From the IMG/VR virus record IMGVR_UViG_3300031565_000128: a stretch of 39,901 nucleotides of DNA. One strand, 5' to 3'. Of the stretch, positions 1 through 39,901 are shown in pieces. The translations under genes and the position numbers were made by a program. This stretch comes from a virus. A model generated the notes under the pieces. That model had not been told where the DNA came from. It made no database searches and saw only the letters and a list, made by a program, of their open reading frames with translations. Position 1 is the first letter of the stretch. Every line of letters begins with the position of its first letter.

Positions 1-127
1 TCCCGTTGGTTCACCTAGAAGTGCCTCCATGTCAGCCCTGCTGAGCTGCTCCCCTGATGGCGTGATATAAATGTCATTCTCTTTAATCTCCCACTTCTCA
101 GGGGTGATAAAGCTGATGCCATAGCCT
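1..127. repeat. Terminal direct repeat, copy 1 (identical to 39775..39901)
   Basis: Base-by-base identity read directly: tcccgttggttcacctagaagtgcctccatg...gctgatgccatagcct occurs at both ends. Confidence 0.95.
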
Positions 128-396: not shown

Positions 397-536
397 TCGG
401 TCTTACCTTGCTCCTTCTTTGCTCGCATCATCTGAAGTAAATTGGGCTTTCCTTGTGGTTTAGCCTGTTCTGGCTTTTGTTCCAGCACCTCTCTATATTC
501 TTCTAGATATTCCTTAATGCCATATTTCTCTGTCAT
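381..536 (-). CDS. Small hypothetical protein (51 aa, not in ORF track)
   Basis: ATG 536..534 forms an ATGA overlap with the portal stop (535..533). Translation is MTEKYGIKEYLEEYREVLEQKPEQAKPQGKPNLLQMMRAKKEQGKTEWPLT, stop TAG at 383..381. It fills the only gap between the portal and giant genes. Confidence 0.4.
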   Translation of the reverse strand: MTEKYGIKEYLEEYREVLEQKPEQAKPQGKPNLLQMMRAKKEQGKTEWPLT

Positions 537-2242
537 GTCTCAGACTCCTCAGTTCCAGGTCTCGGCGTTCCCTTGGCACCTGTTCCCCCCTTCTCTAAAA
601 GAGGCAACAGGTCTTCTTGCTTTGGCTGTTCCCTCTTGCCTTCTACCGGGCTTAGCTGTCCTAGATTTTGCCTTTGTATCAAGATAGTCTTAATTCGTTG
701 CATCAAGGTCTTAGCTTCAAGTTCCATTATCTCTTTCTCAATCCCAGTCTTGACTTCTGCTTGACGCAAGAAGCTAAGTCCCTTATTGAAGAGGAATAAG
801 ACCTCATCTGTGTTTTCGGCTTGTTGTACTTGAAGCTCAAACTTCATGCCATCGGGGTCCTGCACCTTCAGGATTTCTCGCAGAATATAGTCATCGGATA
901 CTACCCCGCGCAAAGCCTTGGCCAACGTAGCGTCGGCAGCCGCTTGTTCCTTTGATAACAGGTGGAATTGATAGGTAATGGAAAACTCACCAGCAAAATC
1001 ACTCGGGCTGTATGTATTGTAGCCTCCTGGCCGTCCTAGCTTTATGGTCTGGTTGAATTGCACACACTGGTCAATAATCATCCTTGAAAGAGCCTGGTAG
1101 AATGAGGCAATCATGGACAGTATCGGAGCGAAGATGTCATTGCGCGCACTGATAAGGTTCATTATAGCCACTGAGGACAGTGGGAAGGTGAGAGTCCCAT
1201 AGTCTAAGGGTGTCAATTCACCCCTCTGCAAGCAAGTTTCTATTATCGAGTAGAGCAGCCTGGTAGTACTCTTAATATCGTTGACAGGCAATTGTCTGAA
1301 CCCTCCACCTATCTCTGTTTCTATTACCACATCTTCCTGAAAAGGTGATTCCTCTGGCTTCTTGCCATGGTCAGGACTATTTGGACTTCTTTGAATCTCC
1401 AATCCCCCCTTCAATGCCTTCCTGCTCAGCGTTTTAAGAATGGTAACAATCTCATTTTTCTCTTTCCATAAATCACGATTAGGCCAGAAGATACTCTCCC
1501 CGTCATGCTCCATGGCATCTTCCGTATTGAACATGCACCCAATCGGACACTTGGCAATGACAAACGGCGGGTATTTATAAGAGTTAACCTCTTCTTGGGC
1601 TATCGTCTTTTCAATAAAAACTAATTCCTTCTCAGCATTCCAGAAGTCAATGACCTGGTTTCCGGTATCCTTTAGCTTAACTTTGAAATCTGGGTAATCC
1701 CTTTCAACCTGAGACTTTGAGCGGCTGCAAATCGGAGCTCCCCACACCATGCCATCAGCGCTTGTGTCAAAGGGAAGCCATCTCGTATCAAACGGCACAA
1801 CATCGGGAACTATGCTTCCCTGCCCGTCCAGTTTTATAGCTGAGCGAGCTCCTATTCTCCCCCGATTACACGCTTGCTCATTGATAAAAGCGTCCAAGCT
1901 AGGAATCCCCCGTTTTGGAAGCCACTCATTCACCATATATAAAATATCGTCCACAAATTTCTCAATCTTGGTTGTCTGCTTATCGGTTAGATCATTACCC
2001 TCGATGACTGTTTGCTTCTGATAACTACCCGTAATAGCAATCGCCTTTTTAGAATAATTCAGAGGGTCGGGTAGCGTAACATTCGATACGTCTTTCTCAT
2101 CCGCTTTACCATCCAGAGTTCTCATCTTGAAGGGTTTAAGCAGATACAAGTCCTCGTCCTCATCCATGCGGTCAAGGAGAGGCTTCATCTCCTTTAGCTT
2201 GCTCTGGACTAGCTTATACTCTTCTCTGTTTTCGTCAGACAT
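533..2242 (-). CDS. Putative portal protein
   Basis: 569 aa, downstream of terL in the packaging/head module. Size is portal-like and the C-terminal tail is charged. SD AGAGGAG lies before the ATG. Assigned by synteny and size, not by a verifiable motif. Confidence 0.55.
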   Translation of the reverse strand: MSDENREEYKLVQSKLKEMKPLLDRMDEDEDLYLLKPFKMRTLDGKADEKDVSNVTLPDPLNYSKKAIAITGSYQKQTVIEGNDLTDKQTTKIEKFVDDILYMVNEWLPKRGIPSLDAFINEQACNRGRIGARSAIKLDGQGSIVPDVVPFDTRWLPFDTSADGMVWGAPICSRSKSQVERDYPDFKVKLKDTGNQVIDFWNAEKELVFIEKTIAQEEVNSYKYPPFVIAKCPIGCMFNTEDAMEHDGESIFWPNRDLWKEKNEIVTILKTLSRKALKGGLEIQRSPNSPDHGKKPEESPFQEDVVIETEIGGGFRQLPVNDIKSTTRLLYSIIETCLQRGELTPLDYGTLTFPLSSVAIMNLISARNDIFAPILSMIASFYQALSRMIIDQCVQFNQTIKLGRPGGYNTYSPSDFAGEFSITYQFHLLSKEQAAADATLAKALRGVVSDDYILREILKVQDPDGMKFELQVQQAENTDEVLFLFNKGLSFLRQAEVKTGIEKEIMELEAKTLMQRIKTILIQRQNLGQLSPVEGKREQPKQEDLLPLLEKGGTGAKGTPRPGTEESET

Positions 2243-2253: not shown

Positions 2254-2514
2254 TTAATGCCTCATAAAGTAATCTACAACAGCTACAATGGCAGCAATAA
2301 CTAACCCGGCGGCGCCACCGATCCCTGCTGTCTGCCTCTTGCTCAGGCCGTTCGAGTTCCCTATTCCTACCTTGATAGTTGCTAGTTCTGTGCTATGCCT
2401 ATTGACAGTTTCAGATAATCCCGTGAAGGTTTTCTTCAGGTCGCGTATATCTACCTCCATGTGCTCTGTTCTTTCGTCTATTCTGGCTACCATTGCTTCT
2501 AAACCGTCTTGCAT
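2254..2514 (-). CDS. Tail-anchored coiled-coil membrane protein (XhlA-like architecture)
   Basis: Preferred start is ATG 2514 with SD AAGGAGG 7 nt upstream (the track start 2538 lacks one). About 60 aa are charged/helical, followed by a C-terminal TM segment GIGGAAGLVIAAIVAVVDYF. Confidence 0.5.
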   Translation of the reverse strand: MQDGLEAMVARIDERTEHMEVDIRDLKKTFTGLSETVNRHSTELATIKVGIGNSNGLSKRQTAGIGGAAGLVIAAIVAVVDYFMRH

Positions 2515-2525
2515 AGTGAGCCTCC

Positions 2526-3833
2526 TTAGTATTTCCAAACCTGGGTTTTCTCTTGCTGTGGTATAGTCTCCGGGGTGAAATCGCTGGCGATATATCTCAG
2601 TGAAGCTAAAAGATGGTACCTAGATTCGTCTTTGATGACATTCGTTGGTTTATTTTCCTCGTCAAGTTTCCACATACAGTTAGCTATCTCGGACAGAACC
2701 ATCCACAGGTCATCGAAAATGTGAATCCTGTTCAACTCCATTAAGGCAATCGTTCTATCTATCTGAACATTTACCCTGGTAAGCATAGGTGCTACTATTT
2801 GCCAGCCATGAGAGGTATAGGATTGCCTTATCTCCTCCTCGGTGGTGACATTCCCCCCGACACTCCGTTTGACTTTGTAGTCATTAGTAAGGTCCTTGAA
2901 GTTTTGCACATGTTCAAATGTAGAGGCACTACCCGGACAATACTCTCTGAAAATCACAAAGTCCCCTTGCCTTACCTGACTTCGTGTTGATGTTACCGGC
3001 TCATCTGGCCCTGGATTCCTTGCGAGAAACAAAGCTGCTGGGTTAGCACTGCCGAAGTCATGCCCACTATACACAGGCCAAATTTTAGGAATGTCGAATC
3101 GCTTAATCTTCATTAGTGACTCATTGAATTTGCCGTAAACGAGCCACGATAGTTCAATCTCATCATCCTCAGCCATAATCTCCTGGCGATAGGATTTCTG
3201 GCTCATATCCCTTGTGATTTCCTCTAATGCCTCATGGGTAATTACTGGATTATCATGGCTGGTGAAGTGAAGGCATAACCACCGGGGATCGTCTTGCTTA
3301 TCCTTGAACATCTTAGAGGCATGGCGTGGATCCTTAGCTTTCGAGATTCCCGCCATCCTCAGGGATGGAGGCGTATAGGAAAACACAGCATCCCCGTTAT
3401 TATCAAGCAACATCGGAGCCCCTACTTGTTCCCAAGCATCCTCACTCATTAGTTGCCATTCGTCCAGGTATAAATCATCAGCGTAGTCACCGCGTAGCGT
3501 ATCGGCGTTCCAAGCTGTTTTTGCCTTGATTCTCTGCTTTGTTCCTGGTACCTCGATAAAGCGCTCTGATTCGTTCTTAACCAGTACCTTAGCGTTTACC
3601 GGCTCACTCAAGGACCGACAGACCTCATACCAGAAAGCATCTGTTTGCTCACTCGTTGGTGCAGCATACAACTGCCTTCTTCCCTTCAAAAACCTCTCAA
3701 CAGCACGAATGGCAAGACCAACCGTTTTACCACTCCTCCGCCCTGCTCGAACTATGATTCGCTTCGCATCGGAATGAACAAACTTAACTTGTTCAGGGTG
3801 TGGTTCCAGGAGTTTTATCCCATACTCGCTCAT
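2526..3833 (-). CDS. terL: Terminase large subunit
   Basis: Walker A is VRAGRRSGKT and Walker B is DLYLDEWQ, followed by the SYTPPS coupling motif. C-terminal nuclease-like acidic motifs are GHDFG and IKDESRYH. Confidence 0.9.
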   Translation of the reverse strand: MSEYGIKLLEPHPEQVKFVHSDAKRIIVRAGRRSGKTVGLAIRAVERFLKGRRQLYAAPTSEQTDAFWYEVCRSLSEPVNAKVLVKNESERFIEVPGTKQRIKAKTAWNADTLRGDYADDLYLDEWQLMSEDAWEQVGAPMLLDNNGDAVFSYTPPSLRMAGISKAKDPRHASKMFKDKQDDPRWLCLHFTSHDNPVITHEALEEITRDMSQKSYRQEIMAEDDEIELSWLVYGKFNESLMKIKRFDIPKIWPVYSGHDFGSANPAALFLARNPGPDEPVTSTRSQVRQGDFVIFREYCPGSASTFEHVQNFKDLTNDYKVKRSVGGNVTTEEEIRQSYTSHGWQIVAPMLTRVNVQIDRTIALMELNRIHIFDDLWMVLSEIANCMWKLDEENKPTNVIKDESRYHLLASLRYIASDFTPETIPQQEKTQVWKY

Positions 3834-5096: not shown

Positions 5097-5378
5097 TTAA
5101 CACCACCTTATAGTGATAACTCCAAGATAGTGAAGTAAGCCTAATATACCTTGACCTATGCAGAAGGTCAGGAAACTATCCCACCAATCTGAACAACCTT
5201 GTCTAGTTCCATCGCAATAGTCATTCCAGGCTTCCATGCCAGCGAACATTCCCATCATTCCCCATCCTGCAAGAATACCAAAGCACAAGATAAGAAAATC
5301 ACACAGAAAACCAAACGCCCAATGTACAGGAGTGGTATTCTTCCTTAATTGAAGCCACAGTGCTATTCTGCTGATCAT
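5097..5378 (-). CDS. Small membrane protein (holin/antiholin-like)
   Basis: 93 aa with 2-3 hydrophobic helices (FGFLCDFLILCFGILAGWGMMGMFAG and FLTFCIGQGILGLLHYLGVITI). It sits directly upstream of the peptidase, and its start forms an ATGA overlap with the upstream small ORF. Confidence 0.45.
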   Translation of the reverse strand: MISRIALWLQLRKNTTPVHWAFGFLCDFLILCFGILAGWGMMGMFAGMEAWNDYCDGTRQGCSDWWDSFLTFCIGQGILGLLHYLGVITIRWC

Positions 5379-19017: not shown

Positions 19018-19662
19018 ATGGGTATGACATTAGCACAAAAGTTGAAGGAATTGAGGATGCAGCGGGGTTGGACGCAGCTCGAGGTTGCTCAACGCTCAGT
19101 TCTAGACAGGAGTTATATTTCTTATCTTGAACAACCTGGGAAGTCTGGACGCCCCTCAGCTGAAGCCTTACTGAAACTAGCCAAAGCCTTCAACATCAAG
19201 CCAGAGGAGTTATACCAAGCAGCAGGGTATATAAAGGAAACCAAAGGAATTTCGCCTCGCCCCGAGACCCCGGAAGAAATCCTTGACCGATTGAAGCTCG
19301 CAACCCCTCAGAGCATACCTGTCTACACAGATTTTCCCTTCCATGCCGGGGAACCGGTAGAGCCAGTTGATTATGTATATCGTGCCAGACCAAAGATTGC
19401 CAGTAAGAACATCGAAGGCTATGTAGTTCATGGCAAATGCCTTGAGCCAGACATCAACAGCGGAGACATCATCATCGTTGACCGCCAGGGTGAGATAAAC
19501 AACGGAGACATAATTGCTTGCTTACTGGACAATGAGCTGCATTTAGCCCGCCTCAGAAAGATAGCCGATGAACTCTGGCTTGAGACTAATAACGGCAGGC
19601 GAAAATTCGAGGAGTGCCAGGTGGCAGCTCCGGTTATTGAATGCATAAGAAGGTTGAAATGA
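19018..19662 (+). CDS. cI/LexA-like repressor (XRE HTH plus S24-like domain with altered catalytic dyad)
   Basis: N-terminal HTH (WTQLEVAQRSVLDRSYISYLE). HAGEP is an Ala-Gly cleavage-site-like motif. The S24-like core is VHGKCLEPDINSGDIIIVD...ELHLARLRK. Confidence 0.75.
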   Translation: MGMTLAQKLKELRMQRGWTQLEVAQRSVLDRSYISYLEQPGKSGRPSAEALLKLAKAFNIKPEELYQAAGYIKETKGISPRPETPEEILDRLKLATPQSIPVYTDFPFHAGEPVEPVDYVYRARPKIASKNIEGYVVHGKCLEPDINSGDIIIVDRQGEINNGDIIACLLDNELHLARLRKIADELWLETNNGRRKFEECQVAAPVIECIRRLK

Positions 19663-19970
19663 AAGACGAGGATCCAGTAGGCAACATCGCCCGAAGGATG
19701 ATAAGTCGTTCCTTATGGGGATTGATTCTAGTTGGCTTAATAATCGTTGTAGTATGGACTTTGCTTAACCATTTCCTTCCTATGGGTTGGTGGATTACCC
19801 TTATCAATGTTTTAGGATTTTTATCTACATCATTGGTTATAGGTGTCGGCACTTGGCAAACATTGAAGCTAGTTATTTCGTCGGGTTATGCTTTTCTGAT
19901 TTCTTCACTGATATGGATTGCAATGGTCATTGGATTACGAACTTTGATGTTTAACTTATTGGGAGGCTAG
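19658..19970 (+). CDS. 3-TM membrane protein co-transcribed with the repressor
   Basis: ATG 19658 forms an ATGA overlap with the repressor stop. There are three hydrophobic helices (SLWGLILVGLIIVVVWTLL, WWITLINVLGFLSTSLVIGVG, YAFLISSLIWIAMVIGL). Confidence 0.55.
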
Positions 19971-20102
19971 TCTGAGACCTGATATTATCTTTTGCTTAAT
20001 TATGCTTATCCTAGTAGCGATTTACGCTTATAAGCATGATGACCCAGATGATTGGAGGGGACATTAAGTAGAACATCCTTGCTAGTTTTTACGAGCAAGG
20101 AC

Positions 20103-20146
20103 TGGCAGTCAGAAGGTAGTGGGTTCGAATCCCATCAGCTCCACCA
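20103..20146 (+). other. attP core candidate: 3'-terminal fragment of a tmRNA (ssrA)/tRNA-like gene
   Basis: GTGGG-TTCGAAT-CCCAT is a T-arm, CAGCTCC is the acceptor 3' strand, then ACCA, ending at 20146. CAGCTCCACCA matches the typical tmRNA 3' end. No matching 5' acceptor strand (GGAGCTG/GGGGCTG) occurs upstream, so this is a fragment and not a gene. Confidence 0.65.
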
Positions 20147-21111
20147 TGAAGCTAAATTGGGCAAAGAATCGGGGAAATGGGCTTGGCTTACCATCTGATT
20201 TTTTGCGGTTGTTATCTAGAGAGATGCTTTTAGACCATCTGATTTCCAAATCCGTATCTGAAGCGCTGGATGAATTTCTCATAGACCTCAAAATCGAGGA
20301 GAGAAGCCCTAAGACGATTTTATTCTACCGGGACCGCCTGAAGTGGTTTGTGAACTTTATTAAGCCCTATACATTATTAAAAGACATCGAAACTGGCGAC
20401 ATCAAACAGTATTTCAGCGCTCAGAACAGCCAACATATCTACGCCTACCATGCCAAGTATCGAGCATTGAGGGCCTTCCTGAATTGGTGTGTCAAACAGA
20501 ATTATATCCTGGAAAGCCCACTAACTTTCAGTCCCCCAAAACTGCCAGACATTATTAAGCCAGCTTTTACCGATGATGAACTGAAGGCGATAATCAAAGC
20601 CTGCACAGGCTCATTGGGACTGAGGAATAAGGCAATGGTGTTAGTTTTGATTGACACCGGGATTCGCCGGGAGGAATTAGCGGGAATTAAGGTAGCAGAC
20701 ATTAACCTGGAGGCCCGACTTATATCTGTAATGGGCAAGGGCAGGAAGCAACGGCTGATACCCATATCTCCCACAACGCTGAAAGCTATCTGGCAATATC
20801 TCAAGGCGAGAAGAAATCCCAGTGAATCCTTATGGCTTACTGAAGAGGGCAGATCCCTTACTGGGGACGGCATAGGACAGACTATTCAGAACTTAATGAG
20901 CCGTGTCGGAGTAAAGCACAAAGGAGCTCATACATTCCGCCATACCTTCGCTAATAATTTCCTTGACCATGGCGGCGATCCCCTTGACCTTCAATATCTT
21001 TTGGGACACACTTCACTCAAGATGGTGGAGAATTATTCCCGGGCTCATAAACAGCGCCGGGCATTGAAAGCTCTGGAAAAACAAAGACCGGTTGACAGGT
21101 TGATGAAATAA
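20146..21111 (+). CDS. int: Tyrosine recombinase / phage integrase
   Basis: C-terminal catalytic motifs GIRREEL, AHTFRHTFA and LLGHTSLKMVENY. The start is ambiguous: ATG 20146 shares its A with the terminal A of the CCA, and the alternative is GTG 20119. Confidence 0.9.
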   Translation: MKLNWAKNRGNGLGLPSDFLRLLSREMLLDHLISKSVSEALDEFLIDLKIEERSPKTILFYRDRLKWFVNFIKPYTLLKDIETGDIKQYFSAQNSQHIYAYHAKYRALRAFLNWCVKQNYILESPLTFSPPKLPDIIKPAFTDDELKAIIKACTGSLGLRNKAMVLVLIDTGIRREELAGIKVADINLEARLISVMGKGRKQRLIPISPTTLKAIWQYLKARRNPSESLWLTEEGRSLTGDGIGQTIQNLMSRVGVKHKGAHTFRHTFANNFLDHGGDPLDLQYLLGHTSLKMVENYSRAHKQRRALKALEKQRPVDRLMK

Positions 21112-25469: not shown

Positions 25470-26435
25470 CTATCGGATAACGCCTCCATCAGCAGCGAGT
25501 TCATTGCCAGTAGTGCCTGTTGGCTGGGTGTCTTTTTTGCCAATCGCACCTCCACCTCTGGCATGGAGACCATATCGTTGCCCATTGCCAGTATTATTTC
25601 TCGATACCAAATGAGCACCATCAATATAAATACAATCCTTCACCACGTCAGTTCCAAAATCACAATCCCTGAAATAGACAAAACCACCCACTACGAATAC
25701 TGCAAAGTCCGCAGTAGCAGCAGGGCATCTCGGCTCCAGCTTATACATTGAGGTAATATCGGTACTAGAGCAGGCTCCCATACTTATAAGCTGAGTAGCT
25801 CGAAGATATTGGACTCTGTAATCACCAAGCATGGCTTTAAGCGTGATTTTATTTACTTCATGGTCGCCTGGGGTATCTGTATCTCCTCTAATCAATAAAA
25901 TTGCGCTGCCAGATATTGTCCGCCCTCTTATATCCACATCCTCTGCCATATCACCAATGATGCGGATAGTATAGCTATGTAGAAGAAACATCGGCACCAT
26001 GCTTTCAGCCTTCCCCCAGGTTTCAAAGGCATCGTCAGACGCTTCGCCACCATTGCCATCATCTCCACTCACTGAGTCTATATAATAAGTCTTACTGGCA
26101 GCAGAAAATAAAAGTATTGATATGCCATGAACGCCTGTGGTTAGGTCTGGATGAGCTTGAAGTTCAGCAATGATAGCTGCCGTTATATTGAGTTTAACTG
26201 CCTTACCAGACACATGAGCAGCAGCAGCCGTCCCTTCCTGTGCTCTGGTAACTGTGAGAACATCACCAGTTCGAGATGTGCATTTGGCTATCTCATCCTC
26301 ACAGGTAACATGAAAGTCGCCAGTAGTAGGGAATAAAGCCCCTTCGCCAGTGGCTACCGTTAGCGATAAATCACTATCAGATATGCCACTAGCCAGTGTT
26401 GAAACAGCACGGTTCTTAACTTTCAAAAATGCCAT
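25470..26435 (-). CDS. Tail fibre/tailspike-like protein (possible beta-helix)
   Basis: The N-terminal segment LTVATGEGALFPTTGDFHVTCEDEI...VTRAQEGTAAAAHVSG is common at the N-termini of phage fibre proteins. The C-terminal half is Gly/Asp/Thr-rich and beta-helix-like. Confidence 0.45.
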   Translation of the reverse strand: MAFLKVKNRAVSTLASGISDSDLSLTVATGEGALFPTTGDFHVTCEDEIAKCTSRTGDVLTVTRAQEGTAAAAHVSGKAVKLNITAAIIAELQAHPDLTTGVHGISILLFSAASKTYYIDSVSGDDGNGGEASDDAFETWGKAESMVPMFLLHSYTIRIIGDMAEDVDIRGRTISGSAILLIRGDTDTPGDHEVNKITLKAMLGDYRVQYLRATQLISMGACSSTDITSMYKLEPRCPAATADFAVFVVGGFVYFRDCDFGTDVVKDCIYIDGAHLVSRNNTGNGQRYGLHARGGGAIGKKDTQPTGTTGNELAADGGVIR

Positions 26436-28184: not shown

Positions 28185-28778
28185 TTAACTTGATAAGAAG
28201 TTCTGAATTACCTGTTTAGCTTCTTGGGTATGTTCTAATGCCCAAAGTCCAGCCAGGTAATCTATCAAGCCTTGATGTTGAGCTTGTGTCATTACCACTA
28301 AATTCTCTGGGCGATTATCGAGTTTGTCGCCGTTTATATGATGGACAACCTCTTGTCTTGTTAGAGGTCGCCTGAGCATTTGCTCGGCAATCAACCGATG
28401 CTCAAGGATTCGTCTGCCATCTGGTTGCCAAATTACTGCATATCCCGCACTGTGCATACTCCGCCCATTCTTAGTCATAGCTGCACAGTGCCTTGAGCAA
28501 TAAATCTGGTCTCGGCTACCGGCACGCCCTCCAGTCTCAAATTCCTTACCACATCTGGGGCAAACTTTGATAATCCTTCGCTGTAATTCAGGACGGGGTT
28601 TGCCTCTCAAGTGTGCGTGCCCTTGCTTCATTCTTTCAATAGCTTCAGGAGTATGGTGATAAGTCCCCTTCAAGCCCTTGTTCCAGGGAATAAAACCTTT
28701 CTTGAAGGGTTGGCCTCTAGGTTGTGTTCCCTTCTTGAACTCAGTTTCTTTTGACCGATGTATTCCTTTCTTTGCCAT
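28185..28778 (-). CDS. HNH homing endonuclease
   Basis: HNH_3-like YAVIWQPDGRRILEHRLIAEQML...VVHHINGDKLDNRPENLVVM. N-terminal NUMOD-like repeats are KKGTQP and KKGFIPWNKGLKG. There is also a zinc ribbon, CPRCGKE...CSRHC. Confidence 0.85.
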   Translation of the reverse strand: MAKKGIHRSKETEFKKGTQPRGQPFKKGFIPWNKGLKGTYHHTPEAIERMKQGHAHLRGKPRPELQRRIIKVCPRCGKEFETGGRAGSRDQIYCSRHCAAMTKNGRSMHSAGYAVIWQPDGRRILEHRLIAEQMLRRPLTRQEVVHHINGDKLDNRPENLVVMTQAQHQGLIDYLAGLWALEHTQEAKQVIQNFLSS

Positions 28779-30362: not shown

Positions 30363-31658
30363 TTAACCTCCTTTGATGCACCAATGGTCATCAAAAACGA
30401 CTAAGCCCGCTTCCTTCAGCCATTTGTTTATATTCTCGCTATGGTCAAAGTGCATCGGGCTTACTTCATGTTCCCAAAAGCAATCATAGTGATAGAACCT
30501 TGCACCTTCTTTCATTCTCGGTCCTAGTTTCAGGAGAAAGCCACGCAGGTCCTCAATGTGCTCTAATGTGTCTATGGCGATAATGAGATCGAATTTCTCC
30601 AAGTCCTCTGGGAACTCACTTGTGAACTTGACATTCCTGGCCCCCAGTTTATTAGCTCTGAATCTGGCGAACTCCAGGACTGTTTCGCTTATGTCGTAGC
30701 CAACTAGGTTCTTATTCTTCCAGCACAAATCAAGGAGGGCAGTCCCTATACCACACCCAACATCTAAAATATGGAGATGCTCAGCGTTCTTGATTCCAGC
30801 CAGCCTTTGCTCTTTGTAGAACTTCGCGGAGTTGAACCCTACTAAGTCATAGAGATAAAGCTGGCCTATCTCCGGGTCTTTGTAGAAGTCCTCGGACGTT
30901 CCTTGCCATTCCTTCCATCTATCACCTAATTGCTCTGTTGCTATGGATTGAGGGACAAGTTCCCTTGATTCCTTCCCTAGATATTCAGCTAAGTCATTCC
31001 ATAAATCGGGACTCTCTGGCTTCCAGGTCATTTTCTCTATTGCTTCCTGAGTGGTGTAAACCTTTTCCTTCAGATGTTGAAGCTGAATCCCGGTATGTGC
31101 ATAAACCTTCGCTCCGGCCTGCCTGACCTTGTTACAGAAGTCCCAGTCCTCAGAGATGTAGATATTTTCATACCTGCCAACCTCAAAGACCGGGTAACAT
31201 TCCGACCAGCTCCCCTCGTTGAGAACCGGCATATCCTGGGTAATCTTCTCAAGGATATTACGGCTGATTCCCAGAAAGCCTGTTGAGACGAACTGCACTT
31301 CCTCTAGCTTGCCTGATATGTGAAAATGCCCGTTCCAACCTCTTTGAGCTAGGAAGGTGCCTCCTCTTACTGGGTATAGCCCACCCACTACATCTAGTCC
31401 ACTACTCAGAGCATCCAGTAACTTCTCGATGTCTCCGAGTGTGAATATAATGTCTCCGTCAAGGAATATCAGATAAGGTGCTTGGTTTTTCTTCAGGAAC
31501 TGGTAGGCTGCTACGCTTCGACTCCTACTTATGAGTGCATCCCCGGTCTGGAACCACCACTCGAACCTGTAATTCGTGTTGTGTAGTCTCTCCACAGATA
31601 CTACTGTATGGTCTGTAACCATTCCGTAAGAGCACGTATAAAGTATGAAATCTAACAT
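30363..31658 (-). CDS. Bifunctional GT-A glycosyltransferase / class I SAM-dependent methyltransferase fusion
   Basis: The N-terminal half has YLIFLDGDIIF (DxD), DVVGGLY and ISEDWDFCNKVRQAGAKVY, which is GT2-like. The C-terminal half has ILDVGCGIGTALLDL (motif I) and FDLIIAIDTLEHI. Confidence 0.75.
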   Translation of the reverse strand: MLDFILYTCSYGMVTDHTVVSVERLHNTNYRFEWWFQTGDALISRSRSVAAYQFLKKNQAPYLIFLDGDIIFTLGDIEKLLDALSSGLDVVGGLYPVRGGTFLAQRGWNGHFHISGKLEEVQFVSTGFLGISRNILEKITQDMPVLNEGSWSECYPVFEVGRYENIYISEDWDFCNKVRQAGAKVYAHTGIQLQHLKEKVYTTQEAIEKMTWKPESPDLWNDLAEYLGKESRELVPQSIATEQLGDRWKEWQGTSEDFYKDPEIGQLYLYDLVGFNSAKFYKEQRLAGIKNAEHLHILDVGCGIGTALLDLCWKNKNLVGYDISETVLEFARFRANKLGARNVKFTSEFPEDLEKFDLIIAIDTLEHIEDLRGFLLKLGPRMKEGARFYHYDCFWEHEVSPMHFDHSENINKWLKEAGLVVFDDHWCIKGG

Positions 31659-32160: not shown

Positions 32161-33150
32161 TTAACTTGTTGCGTCTATGGCTTTGGCCTTGTTGATGCTG
32201 TGAACCCGGGATATAGACTTGGTGCTACCCATCGCTAGGGCGGTATAGCAGTATGCCCTGATACCTTCCATGTTGTAGTTCTGCAACTTCTCAAAATGGT
32301 CAATCTCGAAGAAGTCTTGTCCACCAGTTTCGCCACCAACAGCAAGGCTGACTCCGCCATCCTCGATTGAACCCTTCCTGATAGCGTAGATGCTCACTAA
32401 ATTGCCAGTGCCTAGATCGCCACCAGTGTTGTCATTCTCGGCAGATAGGTAGTCAGATGGGACAATAGGGACACCATTAACGCTTGCGATCATTGTCCCA
32501 AACTCGCTAGGGCTACGAGCCATTATGATAGCTCCAGCCTTGGTCATTCCGTGAATGAACAACTGGTCAACTATCGCTTGAGGCATCAGTAGAAAGTCGG
32601 GACGCGGTTTGCAGGCATGGATAAGGCCAAGCAAGTTGACAATGCTGAGGCCGATGTTGCCACCGCCCTGATCGCAGTCCTGAGAGGCGGCGAAGGTATG
32701 TCCGTCAGTAGCAGGGCACAGCTTGTCCAGACCATCGAACTCTTTCGGGTAAGTGGTTTTATCGCCATAAATGAGCTTGTCCTCGATAGTTCTTAGAGCC
32801 CCTTTTATGATCTGGGACTGTATAGCTGCCCGGTAGTCGTTGGGGTCTTTATATGTTTCCTGGGCTGCTGCGACTAATGCCCACTGGTCGCCAAATTCCT
32901 TCAGCGCCAATTCCCCCTGTGAATAAGTAGCGACTTCCTTCCAGCCATACTGCTCACCCTTGCTCTTAGCGGAGACACCAGGGAGCGTTCCTTCCCGGTT
33001 CCATTTCAGGGTGTATGAGTCAATAGTAGTTATGGCCAACTGTGGTATAAGCTGCCCAACCTCGTATATTTCCTGAACAATGCCAGGCAGTAACTTGGAC
33101 TGCACCAGCTTTACCATTTCGGCAGTGCTGGCAAAATATCCAGTAATCAT
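32161..33150 (-). CDS. Putative major capsid protein
   Basis: 329 aa, directly downstream of the scaffold-like gene, with a strong SD and a 3' hairpin. Assigned by synteny and size. Confidence 0.65.
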   Translation of the reverse strand: MITGYFASTAEMVKLVQSKLLPGIVQEIYEVGQLIPQLAITTIDSYTLKWNREGTLPGVSAKSKGEQYGWKEVATYSQGELALKEFGDQWALVAAAQETYKDPNDYRAAIQSQIIKGALRTIEDKLIYGDKTTYPKEFDGLDKLCPATDGHTFAASQDCDQGGGNIGLSIVNLLGLIHACKPRPDFLLMPQAIVDQLFIHGMTKAGAIIMARSPSEFGTMIASVNGVPIVPSDYLSAENDNTGGDLGTGNLVSIYAIRKGSIEDGGVSLAVGGETGGQDFFEIDHFEKLQNYNMEGIRAYCYTALAMGSTKSISRVHSINKAKAIDATS

Positions 33151-33167: not shown

Positions 33168-33884
33168 TTACTTCTTTTTTTCTCGGAAGCCATCCGCATA
33201 GATTTGCCTTGCGGTTTTTCCTTCCTGTGATCCTTTAGGGCCAGAAGTTACAAGAGAATCATGAGTTGATTTCTTTACAGGCGTTTCGTCTTTCGGCTTT
33301 TTATTCAACCGTTTCGCTACTGTTTTGGCTTGCTCAACAGTCGTCAATTTAAGGTCTTTCATCGTGTCTTTGAGTTCTACCGGGTCAACGCTTTCTGTAT
33401 TAGCAATCTTCCAGATTTCTATTTCCAGTTGCGTTTCCTCAGCAGCCTTAATCTTTGACGCATGTTCGGCCTTGTCCCGCTCGAAGTTGTCGCGCTCTTT
33501 CTTGAGTTCCTTTTTTTTGCCTTCAAGGTCAGCTAGTAAGGTCTTGTAAGACTTCTTAGCCTGAAGTTCCCTGAGTTTGACGGGATCGCCCCTAGCTGCC
33601 TCTAGTTCCGCTTGGTCTATCTGCTCTTGCATCTTAGAGATTTCAGATTTGGTGTCGTCCATCTCCTGTTGCTGAGTTTTTAGACTAGCTTCCCAATCGG
33701 ACAACGTTTTGGCATCCCTGCCGGCAGTAACCCGGGCGTCTTGAGCAGCTTTCGCCTTAATCTCCTCAATCTCCTTCTCTGTGTAAGTCTTGGCTTGGTC
33801 TTTTGGAGTAGTCTCTTCGCTACCCTCGGGAGCCTTCCCATGTTCTTGGGGGGAATCCTTTTGGGTTTCTTTGATTTCGTCCAT
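33168..33884 (-). CDS. Putative scaffolding protein
   Basis: 238 aa, extremely charged (K/E/D/Q) with coiled-coil character. It lies directly upstream of the capsid gene. Confidence 0.6.
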   Translation of the reverse strand: MDEIKETQKDSPQEHGKAPEGSEETTPKDQAKTYTEKEIEEIKAKAAQDARVTAGRDAKTLSDWEASLKTQQQEMDDTKSEISKMQEQIDQAELEAARGDPVKLRELQAKKSYKTLLADLEGKKKELKKERDNFERDKAEHASKIKAAEETQLEIEIWKIANTESVDPVELKDTMKDLKLTTVEQAKTVAKRLNKKPKDETPVKKSTHDSLVTSGPKGSQEGKTARQIYADGFREKKK

Positions 33885-33905
33885 TTGTACCTCCTAAATT
33901 AAAAC

Positions 33906-33959: not shown

Positions 33960-33972
33960 TTTCCAAACGACC

Positions 33973-36900
33973 CTAATTACATCTATCCGTTCCGTATGCT
34001 TTCGTAAGTCCCCTCAATCTGACAAGAGCATCATCTAAATCTGCATCCTGGCATCTAGCCGAAAGTCTCGGTGTCCCAGTCGCCAAGCCGTCATAGTAAA
34101 TTAGTAGCTTCTCCTCTTCCACTGTGGGAATCTTGCTAAAGTCCTTCGGCTGATTGCCTAAAGCATCCAGCCAGACATCATTGTAATAATCTTCATGCTC
34201 CATCAAGAAGCGCTCCTGGTCATAGCCGGCGGTGGGCATTTGGTAATACTGAACATAGAGGTTGATATAGTTTTCAGGAACATCTTTGTTATAGGCGCTT
34301 ACCGTATAATATGCAGTGCCAAATTCCGTCATCTTGCCTTTGTTGTTGAACAATAACGCTTCCCTGGCATCCGCCCTAGCTGCATCACTCGAAATATAAT
34401 TAGGCGATTTGCTGTCTCCATAGGAAGTATAGAGTGAGAATTGCTCTTCATATTGCACCTGAAGCCTTAGAACTGGCTCATTCCAGTCCGAGCCATCATC
34501 TGATAGTAAAGCATTGTCTAATGCCCACTGGTGAGCCTCCTGGTTATCAATCAGCCAAAGTTTAGCCTCAGCACTGCTTGCCCCATACTCGTCAACGATA
34601 ATCCCTCTCTCTACCCATAATTCAACAATCTCTTCAGGTGTGGGATTATCTTTTGTCCCTACATTTAGTGCCTCAATCCGTCTCTGGTCGTCACGGAAGT
34701 CGGGATGTTCTACATATAGTTCTTGAATCGCTCTATCCCTCGCAGTAAGCCCATCAGGACCCTTGAATTCATTATCGAGCCCACTATAGGCATCCAGCAA
34801 ATCAGAAAGGTCTTGGTTCTTGAGCTTCAGCTTAGCAACTTCGTCTAACTCCTCCATGAGTAGGGCATTGACTGGTATGTCCAATGATTTAGCCAATGAA
34901 CTAACCTGCGATAAAGCCTCAAGGCTATAAACATCAGATTGTCCCATAAGTGCCAAGATAGCGTTCTCTTCGGGATGGCTTCTCAGCCAGGCATCCCGAG
35001 GTTTAGAGTGAAGTTCAGGATGCTTGGCTATAAAAGCACCTTGAGTACTGGGTGACAATGAATGGTACTCTACAAGTAGAGCATACTGGCTCTGCGTCAT
35101 ATTGCCCAGGTAAGCCTTCGGGTACAAATCATCGAATTTAGCTAGTTCGCTTTCGTCTGTTATATCCTTCCTTGCCATCCATTGAGCATGGTATTGCTCG
35201 AAGGTATCACCTTCGCTTGGGTCTGCATTGATGCTTGTTAGTCTCTGGCTTGGCAATAAGCTAATTTCTTTCTTCGCATCCTTAGCCTTGGCAACCATCA
35301 ACACCAGTTCGGGTATGTCTCCCCTTTCAGCAAGCATCTCATAAGTGGCACCGCCTATCATCTGACCAACCTCAGAGTAATAATCCTTCATATCGTAAAC
35401 GTCATTTTCTATCGTGTATGGTGCTACCTCTGATCTCTCTGGTAATCCTAACTGCTCTTGTGCCGTTTCCCAATTATTACTCCATGTTTGAACACCAACA
35501 CCCAGCATGGCGAGAAGCCCATATATTGTGCTTGCTCCTTCATTTGACCACCTGACAGCATCTATCCAGTCTTGGACAGCCAAAGGTGTCAATTCTTGAT
35601 AGATTATGCTCTCGGCATTTTCGGCACTTAATTCTTCGCCTATAAACGTCTTGCCTGATTTCAGGCTCCATAGTAAACCGGGAACAGGTGCGAGTTTCGA
35701 CCTGACAAAATTAACCCCTATGTCTATAGGGTCAATAATTTTATAAATCTCGCCGGTTCTGGTTGACTTACGCTCTTCAGCAATTATCTGAGCGATGTTC
35801 CTTACATACGGCTGGAAGCCTGCCCAGAAATCTATCCTTGTATTGCCGAACCTGACTTTCCCAAAATCGCTAGAACGCGGGTCTTTTTCAACGTCAGCGC
35901 CAGCTAGTTCCAGTAGCATTATTACCAGTAAATTAGCACCAACCCACGATACAAGATTTCGAGCAGCTATCTTTCGTACGGCAGGAGTCGTTTTAATTAA
36001 ATCAAGCGGAAGCTGAAGCCTGGACATTACATATCGTGGCGAGAAAAAGACTGCTGAAAGGTATGAACCTGCTCTGCTAAGTGCGCCTAGATCGCCACGC
36101 CCTGTAGCATGATTGATAAATGATGCCAAGTCGGTGTAATCCTTAATAGTCTTATTAGTCCCTTCCCACTGACGGCAGTAATAAGCCCATGTCTCCATTC
36201 TGAGAACATTCAGAAATGTGATGTAAGCCCTCTCTGATGCACGTACTATCGAGCCGATAACCGGCACCCTCTCGATTAACCTGCCCCTAAATGCTTCCTC
36301 CCTGGCTTCTATCCTGACTGCTTCTTCTATAGGCGCAATATAAAGTCCATAACGCTCCGCCTTATCTGCGTAAACGTTGTTATGTACGATTTCGTTTATC
36401 AGCTTAAAATTCTTTTCACTGAATACAGTCTGAAGCTCTGCCTTAAAAGCTGTGGCAAATTGAACAGGTTGACCAACAGCTAATGTAGCACCTTGTCTTA
36501 ATGTGGCTGATAAGTCTGCAAAAGTCTTTAGCGTTCTGGGGATATTAGCTATATCTAGGGCAATCCTAGTAACTTTCTGGCTGGTGGGCATCTTGTCCAT
36601 GATAGCCTTGACAAACTCTGAGCCAAATTCCCTTTCGAGTAAAATCAGCTCGCCCTCGGTTGGTATTTGCCCCATAATTAAATTGGTCAAGGCTTCAGCA
36701 GTATTAAGTTTTTCAAAGGGTCGCAGATTTTCGTCAGTGCGAATCCTGTCAAACATTCGCTCTATATCAGCATCGGTAACTTCAAACTTCCGGAGGTCAA
36801 TATCATAATCAGAGATAGGTAGCGGTCCCCTCAATGCACTCTTGGCTTCGTCAAATGCCTTCCATCCTTCGCCACCCTGAAGTATGCTGGCATATATAGC

Positions 36901-39900
36901 AGAACGCTTGGATAACTCCTCATGCTTTAATGCTTCGGTAGCCTCCCTCGCTGGCTTGGCATCCTTAATAGCCTCGATAAACTTAGACGTGATAATCGCA
37001 TCTGAAGCTGGCGTGGGGTCAGTCTTGACTATTTCAATCTGAGCCTGTGTAGGCTCTGGTTTGGCAACAGGCTTAAGTGCAGGCACTTCAGGCGATAAAG
37101 TCTGCCTTGCCTGCTCATATACTTTAAGCATCTCCTCAAGCTGCCTTGACGTGTACTCTGGGAATATATTGGGCTTTCTCGGGTGCCTTGCTAACGCTAT
37201 CCCTTTTCTAGCTGGTTCACCCTGACCGGGCAAAGAGCGACGGCCTAGCTCAGTTTCTACTTCTCTAATTAGGGAATCTATGTCTTGTACTATCTCTACA
37301 GCATCTAACTCTAGAAGTGCCTCTAATCTGGCAAGTTCTAATCTGAGATTCCCCTTGAGTCCTAAGTCCTTTGGTAGTCGCCCTTTCTTTTCTAAGAGAC
37401 TTTTAATCTCAGAAATTCTATCTTCTGTGGCTTTGGTATTGTATTCCCTGAGCCTCAGATAGTCGTCAATGCGAGACTGGACTAATTTGCCCCTTGCTTC
37501 AGGTCTTACTTCTTTTGCTGGCACTTCCTCTAGCATAGAAGGCTGAAGTCCTGCCTCTGGCATACCTGTGGCGGTTTCGGGGATTGCTGCTCGTTGTGCT
37601 TCACCTAATTGAGCTTGTGCTTTGTTTAGTGCATTTCTCGCATTTATGACATCTTGCGATGTTGCCTTGCCCTTATAAGCAAAAGAGGTCTGCATTTGGT
37701 TAAGAACGTCAGAAGCCTGCCCTACTTTCTTTTTAAGTTCTGCGATTGTAACCTCTCCCACCCCTTCTTCGGCTTTGGGGAGTGCCTTCTCAGGATGGAA
37801 AACTACAACCTCATCGCCCTTTTCAATTATGTTCCTGGCTATAAGCCCATCATATCCTTTACTTTCAAGCCATGCCCTAGCTGCCTGAGCAGCCAGTTCG
37901 TCAGCCTCTTCTACTGTTTTGCCCTCATTAATTGCCTGTTCTCTTGCGGGTCTGGTAGTCTCATTCCAGAAGGTCTCGGCCTCTTGCTGGGTGTTGATAA
38001 CGAAGGGGTTTTTGAGGGTTACAGTCATGACCTCTTTGCCATCGTAGGTCTCGGCATACTCTTTGCTCGTGGTGTAGTAAGTTCCCTTGCCGAACAGGCC
38101 CTCGTCCACGGGAGCACCGCCGACTTTATATCCTCGATAGACAGTAGCGGTATATGGCTTGCCTGTTGTAACCTCTGGGGTAACAGGCGTAACCTTTATC
38201 TCCTCCGCCACCTTTATATCTTGCAAGACACTTTCGGCTAATCCTGCTTCAAGAACTTTCTTGGCATCTTGTTCCGTTATAGTTCCTTTGCCTACCTCCT
38301 CCTCTATATGTTCCTTAAGTTCCTCATATAACGGATTACCTTCGCCGATTTCATTTTTGAGAGAGTTAGTAATTTTGTCTATGTTTTCAACACTGTTTGT
38401 CCTCGCTCTGATACGCCCAGCACCACTAACTATAACCTGCCCAGCACCAGTCATTATCGTGGTTAAGAGAAATGTTTGTGGGGCAATTTCCTTAAATGCT
38501 TCCCACCAAGTAATGTTGCCTTCCCTTAGTCCAGCCTCAACCTCAATAGCAGCCTGTCCCTTTTGGGTTATTGTTTCAGTCAATAATTCTTCACCATAAA
38601 TACCAAATGCCTTACTACCAAATTTCGCAACCAGAGAGCTACCAATAGACTGTGCCACTTTCTGTCCAGCAACTCTAGTTAAAGCATTAGTAAATGCACC
38701 GCCTAGAATTCCAGAAAAAAGCATATTGCTAATACCTTCTGGTATTGCTTCCCAAAGACCATATCTAACAGCCTTATCGTGGAAATCAATCTTCAGTTGA
38801 TTTTCTTCTTCTAGCGTCAATCCTTGACCAGTATCGGCTCTCTTTTCAGCATCCTTGAATTCAAGATATTGCTGCGTTATCTGATAAGTAACCATTCGGT
38901 GAGAAATAAATCCTGATACCGCCCCTGTTACTGCCATAGCAGCCACCTTCGTTCCCGTTGTTGGTTCAGGGATAAGCCATAGGGGTAAAGCAGCCAAGCT
39001 ACCTACTCCCATAGTAACAATTGAATAACCTAAATTCTGTGATAATTGAGCCACATCTAGCAAGAATTGTGAATTAGGATATTCTGTCATAGTCTTCTGG
39101 ACAAACTCATTTAAGTTTTCGTTGGCTTCAGCAATCTTTTCGTCCGCCCAATCTTTATTGACTACACTTGCCCCACCTTCACCTTGAACTGCTTGTAATA
39201 CAGATGCCCCAATTTGAGCAGGAAGTTGCTTTATACTACCTGCGAAAACATATGCAGCGTCTTTCAGGGGTGCTGCTTCTACTACCGGGATTTCACCATA
39301 AGCCCCTGGGAATCCTATAGTATCTAATGGCGTTGTCATTGTCGCCCATACAGGAGTTTGGGGAAACGGGAGCAATCTTCGCACTTCTACGTCTGGTCTT
39401 GTCGCCTCAGGTGCAACTTCCGTGCCAAATATATCTTGTATCTCCTCATCGGTGAGATGAACGGTACCTCCCTGTCCATCATCAAAAGGAATCGCCTTGA
39501 GCAGTGCTACCACATCCTCAGTCGGGCCAATCTCTCTTATATCAGCAAGAAAAGCTTCGCGATTTTCATTCATATAGTCAATAACTTCCTGAATATCCTG
39601 CTCAGGAAACACCACCCCGAATACCTGCTCAGTTTCAAGCTGCTGCCTCTCTCTTAAATCCACCCAGCCTTTAACATCTAACTCTCCCCCAGCCTGCTGG
39701 TATTCTTGGTATGCACTCTTCCCCGCTTCGGTCAGGTCTTCTATGGTCACAGCCCATGGGGTAGCCTCAAAATCTCCCGTTGGTTCACCTAGAAGTGCCT
39801 CCATGTCAGCCCTGCTGAGCTGCTCCCCTGATGGCGTGATATAAATGTCATTCTCTTTAATCTCCCACTTCTCAGGGGTGATAAAGCTGATGCCATAGCC

Positions 39901-39901
39901 T
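33973..39901 (-). CDS. Giant putative polyvalent / internal virion protein (2,065 aa once joined to 1..396 across the junction)
   Basis: The 1,943-aa track ORF stays open to the window edge. It lies between the portal and scaffold genes. It has several hydrophobic glycine-rich segments, long coiled coils, an ART-like segment (about 37790..38165) and a C-terminal region of HPE-containing helical repeats. Confidence 0.8.
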   Translation of the reverse strand, partial: GYGISFITPEKWEIKENDIYITPSGEQLSRADMEALLGEPTGDFEATPWAVTIEDLTEAGKSAYQEYQQAGGELDVKGWVDLRERQQLETEQVFGVVFPEQDIQEVIDYMNENREAFLADIREIGPTEDVVALLKAIPFDDGQGGTVHLTDEEIQDIFGTEVAPEATRPDVEVRRLLPFPQTPVWATMTTPLDTIGFPGAYGEIPVVEAAPLKDAAYVFAGSIKQLPAQIGASVLQAVQGEGGASVVNKDWADEKIAEANENLNEFVQKTMTEYPNSQFLLDVAQLSQNLGYSIVTMGVGSLAALPLWLIPEPTTGTKVAAMAVTGAVSGFISHRMVTYQITQQYLEFKDAEKRADTGQGLTLEEENQLKIDFHDKAVRYGLWEAIPEGISNMLFSGILGGAFTNALTRVAGQKVAQSIGSSLVAKFGSKAFGIYGEELLTETITQKGQAAIEVEAGLREGNITWWEAFKEIAPQTFLLTTIMTGAGQVIVSGAGRIRARTNSVENIDKITNSLKNEIGEGNPLYEELKEHIEEEVGKGTITEQDAKKVLEAGLAESVLQDIKVAEEIKVTPVTPEVTTGKPYTATVYRGYKVGGAPVDEGLFGKGTYYTTSKEYAETYDGKEVMTVTLKNPFVINTQQEAETFWNETTRPAREQAINEGKTVEEADELAAQAARAWLESKGYDGLIARNIIEKGDEVVVFHPEKALPKAEEGVGEVTIAELKKKVGQASDVLNQMQTSFAYKGKATSQDVINARNALNKAQAQLGEAQRAAIPETATGMPEAGLQPSMLEEVPAKEVRPEARGKLVQSRIDDYLRLREYNTKATEDRISEIKSLLEKKGRLPKDLGLKGNLRLELARLEALLELDAVEIVQDIDSLIREVETELGRRSLPGQGEPARKGIALARHPRKPNIFPEYTSRQLEEMLKVYEQARQTLSPEVPALKPVAKPEPTQAQIEIVKTDPTPASDAIITSKFIEAIKDAKPAREATEALKHEELSKRSAIYASILQGGEGWKAFDEAKSALRGPLPISDYDIDLRKFEVTDADIERMFDRIRTDENLRPFEKLNTAEALTNLIMGQIPTEGELILLEREFGSEFVKAIMDKMPTSQKVTRIALDIANIPRTLKTFADLSATLRQGATLAVGQPVQFATAFKAELQTVFSEKNFKLINEIVHNNVYADKAERYGLYIAPIEEAVRIEAREEAFRGRLIERVPVIGSIVRASERAYITFLNVLRMETWAYYCRQWEGTNKTIKDYTDLASFINHATGRGDLGALSRAGSYLSAVFFSPRYVMSRLQLPLDLIKTTPAVRKIAARNLVSWVGANLLVIMLLELAGADVEKDPRSSDFGKVRFGNTRIDFWAGFQPYVRNIAQIIAEERKSTRTGEIYKIIDPIDIGVNFVRSKLAPVPGLLWSLKSGKTFIGEELSAENAESIIYQELTPLAVQDWIDAVRWSNEGASTIYGLLAMLGVGVQTWSNNWETAQEQLGLPERSEVAPYTIENDVYDMKDYYSEVGQMIGGATYEMLAERGDIPELVLMVAKAKDAKKEISLLPSQRLTSINADPSEGDTFEQYHAQWMARKDITDESELAKFDDLYPKAYLGNMTQSQYALLVEYHSLSPSTQGAFIAKHPELHSKPRDAWLRSHPEENAILALMGQSDVYSLEALSQVSSLAKSLDIPVNALLMEELDEVAKLKLKNQDLSDLLDAYSGLDNEFKGPDGLTARDRAIQELYVEHPDFRDDQRRIEALNVGTKDNPTPEEIVELWVERGIIVDEYGASSAEAKLWLIDNQEAHQWALDNALLSDDGSDWNEPVLRLQVQYEEQFSLYTSYGDSKSPNYISSDAARADAREALLFNNKGKMTEFGTAYYTVSAYNKDVPENYINLYVQYYQMPTAGYDQERFLMEHEDYYNDVWLDALGNQPKDFSKIPTVEEEKLLIYYDGLATGTPRLSARCQDADLDDALVRLRGLTKAYGTDRCN
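39775..39901. repeat. Terminal direct repeat, copy 2 (identical to 1..127)
   Basis: Same 127-nt string as positions 1..127. The length is typical of a k-mer overlap left by circular contig assembly (inference). Confidence 0.95.

Follow-up and report, generated by a model that had tools for sequence, protein, structure and literature searches.

A junction-spanning giant gene among the head genes of a 39,774-bp phage genome encodes a candidate capsid-packaged, ejected polyvalent protein

We analysed the virus record IMGVR_UViG_3300031565_000128 of IMG/VR, a stretch of 39,901 nt (the whole of it is called the window below), with respect to a giant gene that runs across its two ends. An earlier note on this DNA, made from the letters alone, had proposed that the product is a polyvalent, capsid-packaged ejection or effector protein. 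Positions 1..127 and 39775..39901 form an exact 127-bp direct repeat at both window ends, typical of the k-mer overlap of a circular assembly, and this overlap sets the complete genome at 39,774 bp. Joining minus-strand positions 396..1 to 39774..33973 gives one unbroken open reading frame (ORF) of 2,065 codons and a stop, as had been claimed, for a protein of 229.9 kDa with a pI of 4.8. The gene takes up 15.6% of the genome (6198/39774), the same figure as given before. An ORF list of the window alone shows it as 33973..39804, 1,943 amino acids (aa) from an internal ATG. The start of the gene (ATG at 396..394) overlaps the end (TAA at 388..386) of a 49-aa ORF that begins at 535, an arrangement that the earlier note had also read correctly. 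The two parts of the gene and the modules of its product are as follows.

33973..39774, minus strand: giant ORF, main part, codons 133-2065 and stop
1..396, minus strand: giant ORF, first 132 codons, with the ATG at 396..394
1..396 and 39406..39774 (aa 133-255), minus strand: module A, aa 1-255, alpha/beta fold, predicted local distance difference test score (pLDDT) ~90
38251..39285, minus strand: module B, aa 296-640 (approximate), long helices with conserved Gly/Ala-rich hydrophobic segments at 382-400, 483-501 and 566-584
37783..38169, minus strand: module C, aa 668-796, ART-PolyVal ADP-ribosyltransferase (ART) cassette (PF18760)
36586..37593, minus strand: module D, aa ~860-1195, charged linker of helical type with a conserved GMPEAG motif at its start
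35416..36585, minus strand: module E, aa 1196-1585 (approximate), helical; its hydrophobic parts are the helix 1406-1424 and a second stretch at ~1542-1560
33976..35415, minus strand: module F, aa 1586-2065, acidic (net charge -42), all-helical, pLDDT >90, with ~95-aa tandem repeats carrying HPE/NPD motifs

An ORF that spans the window ends could be an artefact of assembly or annotation, arising from sequences wrongly joined where the ends meet (a chimera) or from a fused pseudo-ORF. We consider this hardly credible. The identical 2,065-aa gene was found in the interior of two ENA contigs from independent assemblies, k141_4106987 (40,226 bp, giant gene at 25695-37892) and k141_2414914 (39,866 bp), and the junction is therefore taken to be real; the gene is contiguous inside both contigs, which answers the doubt about a broken junction that the earlier note had raised against its own claim. 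A frame of 2,065 codons at 46% GC cannot have arisen by chance. The existence of more than 60 full-length homologues also argues against an artefact: 64 homologues of the giant protein were detected, all 1,441-3,238 aa in length, and many of them lie on metagenomic contigs of 36-41 kb obtained from sediment, the subsurface or springs. One of these (P0002) is 61% identical across 98% of the length, and the homologues in three related contigs (L010, L018 and L019) are collinear with it.

Local alignments of the 64 homologues, mapped on the giant protein, resolved the six independently recombining modules listed above, and all eight peptide segments quoted in the earlier note were located (at aa 380, 408, 567, 1405, 1549, 1715, 1819 and 1989). 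Module A gave 81 relatives in a phmmer search of 1.84e9 (1.84 billion) representative proteins. Nearly all are either N-terminal (residues 1-250) in proteins of 1,600-3,700 aa or short entries (some <100 aa, probably fragments), and module A appears to be a domain confined to the giant-protein family. Module F is C-terminal in nearly all homologues that carry it. The recurring HPE/HPD helical units recognised earlier turned out to be a true ~95-aa tandem repeat, detected off the diagonal in an hhalign self-comparison (99.1% probability, E 9e-19). For the long coiled coils of the earlier note, the family scans offered only a non-significant H-NS N-terminal match (E 0.005). The last ~145 residues of module D belong to stand-alone E-type proteins (see below). 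At the start of D, after the ART cassette, the motif (T/A)xAGMPEAGL (~37550..37593, minus strand, aa ~870-878) is conserved in many homologues and could be a cleavage or docking site.

The hydrophobic segments described in the earlier note are present at the places given and are conserved, with hydrophobic positions kept across 40 homologues of module B and 156 of module E. They are of moderate strength. Kyte-Doolittle peaks over 19-residue windows are 1.64 (382-400), 1.28, 1.33 and 1.89 (1406-1424), and only two windows exceed 1.6, the usual transmembrane threshold for such windows. Helix 1406-1424 is the most hydrophobic of the giant protein and is directly followed in module E by a conserved hairpin, DPRxxDFGK(I/V)R(I/F)GNxRID. 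Among the large proteins of the structural block, clearly hydrophobic segments occur in the giant protein only, which is compatible with a membrane-active role.

Scans of the whole protein and of each module against Pfam, PHROGs and NCBIfam gave ART-PolyVal as the only significant family, and the “enzyme-like globular segment” noticed earlier corresponds to this domain. When aa 645-810 were scanned alone, the match reached 33.9 bits (E 6.6e-8), above the Pfam gathering score of 31.2 bits; in the full-length scan it scored 28.6 bits, under that cut-off. The ART-PolyVal family was defined in polyvalent proteins of phages and conjugative elements that were predicted to be delivered with the DNA, and its published active site is H-Y-D (PMC5512222). 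In 11 cassettes compared here, R679, Y698, T701 and D774 are invariant and E787 varies. The strand-1 position reads YRG (R679), with Arg instead of the published His, and the first 28 profile positions are unaligned in the match. The ART segment (37741..38238, minus strand) was also compared with GenBank phages by tblastn; the sole match, to crAss-like phage cr85_1, was non-significant (E 0.1) and falls in a giant protein annotated “putative RNA-polymerase subunit”.

In relatives of the giant protein the region downstream of module B carries other cargo, namely a PBECR3 nuclease (P0081), an S-adenosylmethionine (SAM) methyltransferase (P0051) or LPD38 (P0029 and P0064). Between proteins that share 40-65% identity in their other modules, the ART cassettes are 78-88% identical, a difference which indicates that the cassette moves by exchange. 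The term “polyvalent” used in the earlier note is thus supported by a domain of the published catalogue as well as by the cargo swaps. These data also bear on a structural alternative, in which the protein would be an internal head protein (a core, an inner scaffold or a portal-associated plug) that is packaged and stays undelivered, with a degenerate ART. A partial ART match with Arg in place of His would suit such a protein, and so would its acidity (pI 4.8), its fixed and well-folded termini A and F, and a gene that lies between the portal candidate and the scaffold candidate described below. However, the swap of the cargo for PBECR3, methyltransferase or LPD38 domains is a typical trait of effectors that are delivered and not of structural parts, and the high conservation of the ART cassette, with R679, Y698 and D774 invariant, suggests purifying selection on the active site. 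We consider a purely structural role unlikely.

Beyond the ART cassette, most of the length matched no family that could be named in Pfam, PHROG, NCBIfam or PDB, as the earlier note had stated. Matches to Ubiquitin_3, H-NS_N, DinB_2 and PriL were not significant and were discarded, as was a match to phrog_137 “head-tail adaptor Ad1” (E 0.014). No match was obtained among PDB sequences by phmmer and profile searches with the whole protein, aa 1-810, aa 1196-2065 or the ART cassette. AlphaFold2 models of aa 1-810 (pLDDT 73) and aa 1196-2065 (pLDDT 82) were compared with PDB by Foldseek and gave best E-values of 0.017 and ~1 with TM-scores of ~0.1; the matches were spurious ones to long-helix transporters. 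These multi-domain models were searched uncropped, and a weak single-domain match (A or ART) may be missed in this way. The Pfam and AlphaFold/Foldseek comparison proposed in the earlier note therefore left ART-PolyVal as the sole family and no significant PDB fold. Against BFVD, the N-terminal model found N-terminal segments of other giant phage proteins, one of them named “large polyvalent protein-associated domain-containing”.

Signatures of MuF, RNA polymerase (RNAP), helicase, methylase, peptidase, lysozyme and tape-measure proteins were absent from the family scans of the giant protein. The Phage_Mu_F domain gave no match even at E<=5 with module A alone, and a MuF identity was rejected because this domain is missing. 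For a zincin-like metallopeptidase (MPTase) there was no Pfam match, and no HExxH motif was seen on reading the sequence. Hidden Markov models (HMMs) of all six modules gave no match at E<=1 to the ORFs of T7, P22 and SU10.

Module E together with the last ~145 residues of module D makes up essentially the entire length of stand-alone proteins of a large family. For module E, 157 relatives were obtained; most entries measure ~400-680 aa, and those of full length (~560-680 aa) align to residues ~1050-1565 of the giant protein. In contig L013 (8001..11686) a 581-aa B protein (P0074) is directly followed by a 642-aa E protein, and the pair closes a tail cluster that opens with an SU10_adaptor-like gene. 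An E protein follows the adaptor and four tail-sized genes in L012 (10001..11893), and in L011 (923..2917), a contig that begins just upstream, no further large gene separates it from the genes for SNF2, methylase and Toprim. In L005 the structural block ends with a 2,825-aa protein whose C-terminus is module E. B/E homologues thus occupy the distal slot of the structural operon in L005, L012 and L013, and the arrangement in L011 is consistent with it. The same slot holds the ejection proteins of T7 (gp14-16), P22 (gp7/20/16) and SU10 (gp21-24). The stand-alone B and E proteins sit in the ejection-protein slot of podovirus contigs of the SU10-adaptor type, and split, adjacent B and E genes at the distal end of a tail cluster give circumstantial support to a function in ejection. 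The stand-alone B (581 aa) and E (~630-664 aa) proteins carry no annotation and no precomputed Pfam match, and in PHROG they gave only one non-significant match (E 0.0085). By this comparison, the giant gene looks like a mosaic fusion of two proteins that are encoded separately in related phages, with an ART cargo added.

Module B was also found in a cultured phage, the Klebsiella phage LASTA, a podovirus by electron microscopy. It lies at aa 358-598 (HMM E 2.8e-45) of a 4,433-aa protein (QIW86628, annotated as “PLxRFG domain-containing” or “DarB-like antirestriction”), near the N-terminus of a protein that is likewise giant and from a podovirus. The LASTA protein differs from the giant protein in its place at the end of the structural operon, that is, in the distal slot described above, and in that modules A, E, F and the ART were not detectable in it by the module HMMs. 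The words “PLxRFG”, “DarB” and “mass spectrometry” do not occur in the text of the LASTA paper. Among 50,697 phage records, tblastn matches were limited to LASTA/SJM3 for module B and a single metagenomic phage for module E; queries with a consensus of module E and with the ART added nothing significant in these records. No copies were found in cultured phages other than LASTA/SJM3, and two pattern-based scans of GTDB species genomes for module E revealed no prophage copies.

Nearly all genes of the 39,774-bp genome are on the minus strand. Their order is terminase large subunit (TerL), 94-aa ORF, 569-aa protein, 49-aa ORF, giant gene, 238-aa scaffold candidate and 329-aa capsid protein; after the capsid gene come a glycosyltransferase-methyltransferase fusion, a 265-aa protein, an HNH endonuclease, a tail fibre and large unassigned proteins.

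2526..3833, minus strand: terminase large subunit (phrog_2, E 1.7e-33)
2254..2538, minus strand: 94-aa ORF that separates TerL from the portal candidate; its C-terminal helix is strongly hydrophobic (Kyte-Doolittle 2.24)
533..2242, minus strand: conserved 569-aa protein, portal candidate by position and size alone (synteny)
386..535, minus strand: conserved 49-aa ORF, overlapping the 569-aa stop on one side and the giant-gene start on the other
33168..33884, minus strand: 238-aa scaffold candidate directly downstream of the giant gene (synteny; weak match to phrog_1793, E 9.7e-4)
32161..33150, minus strand: major capsid protein, 329 aa (phrog_212, E 2.3e-25)
30363..31658, minus strand: fusion of a GT2-type glycosyltransferase-like N-terminus and a SAM methyltransferase, 431 aa, between the capsid and adaptor-like genes
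28185..28778, minus strand: HNH endonuclease inside the structural module (many PHROG matches, best E 2e-17)
25470..26435, minus strand: tail fibre with T7-like N-terminus (aa 4-93 also matches PHROG tail-fibre N-termini)
5097..5378, minus strand: 93-aa ORF with two hydrophobic segments, may be a holin

We compared this arrangement with four further phage contigs (L008, L010, L018 and L019). The order TerL, 569-aa protein, ~50-aa ORF, giant gene, scaffold, capsid and adaptor-like gene is kept in all four. The earlier note had placed the giant gene in the head-protein slot that follows the portal gene. Its location in a late head-gene block stands, with synteny in five contigs; the portal half of the statement could not be confirmed. 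The 569-aa protein, 27-81% identical among relatives, was searched by BLASTP, by a five-sequence profile against PDB and by hhalign against T7 gp8, P22 gp1 and an SU10-type portal. There was no portal match in PHROGs, Pfam or PDB and none to the T7, P22 or SU10-type portals, and the protein is either a very divergent portal or a misassigned gene. The ORF at 386..535 is a hydrophilic protein of 49-51 aa; its counterpart in L010 (51 aa) is 63% identical, and a 53-aa counterpart lies at the same place in L008. It may be a coupling or assembly factor. The 94-aa ORF is, besides the giant protein, the sole clearly membrane-type protein of the head block. Elsewhere in the genome, a small plus-strand island (19018..21111) includes a 109-aa ORF (19641..19970), one segment of which is very hydrophobic (Kyte-Doolittle 2.58). 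A search for tRNA genes was negative.

In the closer relatives L010, L018 and L019, the modules of the giant protein show 37-69% identity; the 569-aa protein reaches 48-81% and the capsid protein 49-86%. Ejection proteins are described as alpha-helical and fast-diverging, with segments that are hydrophobic or could span a membrane, and they are identified from their size and synteny, not from their sequence (PMC8954989). The faster divergence of the giant modules relative to the 569-aa and capsid proteins fits this description.

The neighbourhood also bears on the possibility that the product is a late, non-virion protein that works in the cell in which it is made (host takeover, anti-defence and envelope remodelling would be examples), and that its place in the head operon is incidental. 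Other non-structural genes are interspersed in the same structural block, namely those for the HNH endonuclease and the glycosyltransferase-methyltransferase fusion. Against such a non-virion protein, the position of the giant gene is strictly conserved, with overlapping start and stop codons among head genes, and homologues of B and E are found in structural clusters in L005, L012 and L013, with L011 consistent. A 230-kDa protein that takes 15.6% of a 40-kb genome would also be costly for an accessory role. We give this explanation little weight. In two related contigs, L008 and L012, genes for glycosyltransferase, radical-SAM/B12, NeuB and LicD proteins lie beside structural genes, which together with the fusion gene suggests glycosylation or modification of the virion or DNA in this phage group.

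PHROG and family scans of the structural genes gave no tube, sheath or tape-measure family, in agreement with the earlier note. The 265-aa protein has an orthologue in a related contig that matches SU10_adaptor faintly; a pairwise comparison of the 265-aa protein itself with an SU10_adaptor-annotated protein detected nothing. Residues 4-93 of the tail fibre are 39% identical to a 121-aa “tail fiber protein” of Klebsiella podovirus LASTA, a second link to that phage beside module B. Because tube, sheath and tape-measure genes were not found, an SU10_adaptor match is faintly visible and the fibre N-terminus is LASTA-like, the phage is likely a short-tailed one (a podovirus).

An external tail component, either tape-measure-like or of the fibre/needle type, would explain why the protein is long and helical with hydrophobic Gly/Ala-rich segments as in tape-measure proteins, and BFVD contained a weak match to a tape-measure protein of a Caulobacter phage (E 0.43). 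Yet tail tube, sheath and chaperone genes were not detected in the genome, and the giant gene lies upstream of the scaffold and capsid genes and not in a tail module; on these grounds a tape-measure identity was rejected. The genome has its own T7-like fibre gene, the giant protein contains no predicted beta-rich receptor-binding domain, and its module B recurs in LASTA, whose podovirus morphology was seen by electron microscopy. We regard a tail component as very unlikely.

The giant protein shares several properties with the polyvalent proteins described by Iyer, Burroughs, Anand, de Souza and Aravind in 2017 (PMC5512222). It is giant, multidomain and encoded among late virion genes, it contains ART-PolyVal (with PBECR3 and LPD38 in relatives), and its cargo is shuffled in a mosaic manner. 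It differs from them in having one recognisable enzymatic domain, vs. two or more unrelated ones, and in that the zincin-like MPTase (frequent there, not universal) was not found; the modules that match no family may harbour further, unrecognised activities. In addition, ∼90% of its length (modules A, B, D, E and F) lies outside the published LPD/Pfam catalogue, and two of its modules have conserved hydrophobic segments. In the text of that paper the words “transmembrane” and “PLxRFG” are absent and “hydrophobic” occurs once (PMC5512222).

The ejection proteins of podoviruses (T7 gp14/gp15/gp16, P22 gp7/gp20/gp16 and SU10 gp21-24) resemble the giant protein in their alpha-helical nature, hydrophobic segments (of moderate strength in the giant protein) and fast divergence, and the split B/E genes occupy the same distal slot of the structural operon. 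T7 gp16 fuses an enzyme to a membrane-active part, and the giant protein would be similar in this respect. Unlike these proteins, with which no sequence or fold similarity was detectable, the modules here are fused, stand next to the portal candidate and the head genes, and are joined to an ART.

The giant gene occupies the slot of MuF and SPP1 gp7 head proteins, immediately behind the portal candidate, and MuF-effector fusions follow the same idea of exchangeable effectors attached to an N-terminal domain that anchors in the head (PMC5512222). In contrast to them, there is no Phage_Mu_F domain here, and module A forms a separate family confined to giant proteins. The virion RNA polymerase gp50 of N4-like phages and DarB of P1 are giant, capsid-packaged and injected proteins. 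Very large size and the proposed action from inside the capsid would be common to them and the giant protein, and its pattern of fixed termini around a variable middle is compatible with them, but RNAP, helicase and methylase domains were not found and there is no homology. An identity as N4-type virion RNA polymerase was rejected on the lack of an RNAP domain and of homology.

Our favoured reading, which we hold to be probable at a moderate level of confidence, is that the giant protein is packaged in the capsid and ejected, a polyvalent protein in which ejection-type modules and an ART effector are combined. Beyond a late gene in the head block, every step of the mechanism is one that we infer: packaging, ejection, membrane insertion or a conduit, and the activity and target of the ART. 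The protein would be made late, together with the head proteins, as a virion-internal pilot protein, and a few copies would enter the capsid and leave it by way of portal and tail, before the DNA or together with it. Modules A and F, the termini of fixed position, would probably serve in incorporation near the portal, docking and orderly exit. Modules B and E would be the ejection-protein equivalents of this lineage; their helices would be stored in soluble form and then probably refold into or onto the host envelope, aiding DNA passage, as has been described for T7 gp16 and P22 gp16. The genome of T7 (39,937 bp) is of the same size class, and its internal core consists of multiple copies of gp14, gp15 and gp16. 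As a rough estimate from the copy numbers and sizes of these T7 proteins, four to six copies of a 230-kDa protein would equal about the mass of the T7 core. The analogy of T4 Alt (PMC5512222) suggests that the ART cargo would modify a target in the host upon entry.

The earlier note had suggested an ejection conduit combined with an injected effector. The ART-PolyVal domain, the synteny and the split B/E genes speak for this suggestion, but homology to T7, P22 and SU10 ejection proteins was not found. Several further points weigh against the favoured reading. Neither structural model has a significant fold match in PDB. Just two windows of the giant protein pass the transmembrane threshold, and many homologues stay below it. 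The giant gene adjoins the head genes rather than lying in the classical ejection-protein slot, and the portal identity of its 569-aa neighbour, based on position and size alone, is unconfirmed. One enzymatic domain is recognisable, with no processing peptidase, and a match that lacks the first 28 profile positions, together with Arg in place of His, makes the activity of this domain, and thus the catalytic competence of module C, uncertain.

A more far-reaching version of the favoured reading is that a single polypeptide replaces the multi-protein ejectosome of podoviruses. Modules B and E would then found two new, widespread families of ejection proteins in an uncultivated podovirus clade and, after exit, build a conduit across the envelope, the ART would be tethered in cis so that host modification takes place at the site of DNA entry, and modules A and F would represent a new system for capsid incorporation and exit. 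This version is doubtful in our view.

The giant protein seems to add a so far uncharacterised variant to the known giant polyvalent virion proteins rather than to represent a new type of system. Giant, mosaic, virion-delivered proteins with ART domains are known already, and current ideas are not overturned. The results provide a working functional label for two unannotated families, E with at least 157 relatives and B with dozens, including one in a cultured Klebsiella phage, and the stand-alone forms of both would merit family definitions of their own. They suggest that ejection-type modules and injected effectors can be fused and relocated to the head-gene block. The split and fused genes form a natural set for studying how DNA and cargo pass the envelope in podoviruses without recognisable T7- or P22-type ejection proteins. 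The split/fused relation of B and E and the link to LASTA, a phage with which experiments could start, bring a large set of phage proteins that lack annotation within experimental reach.

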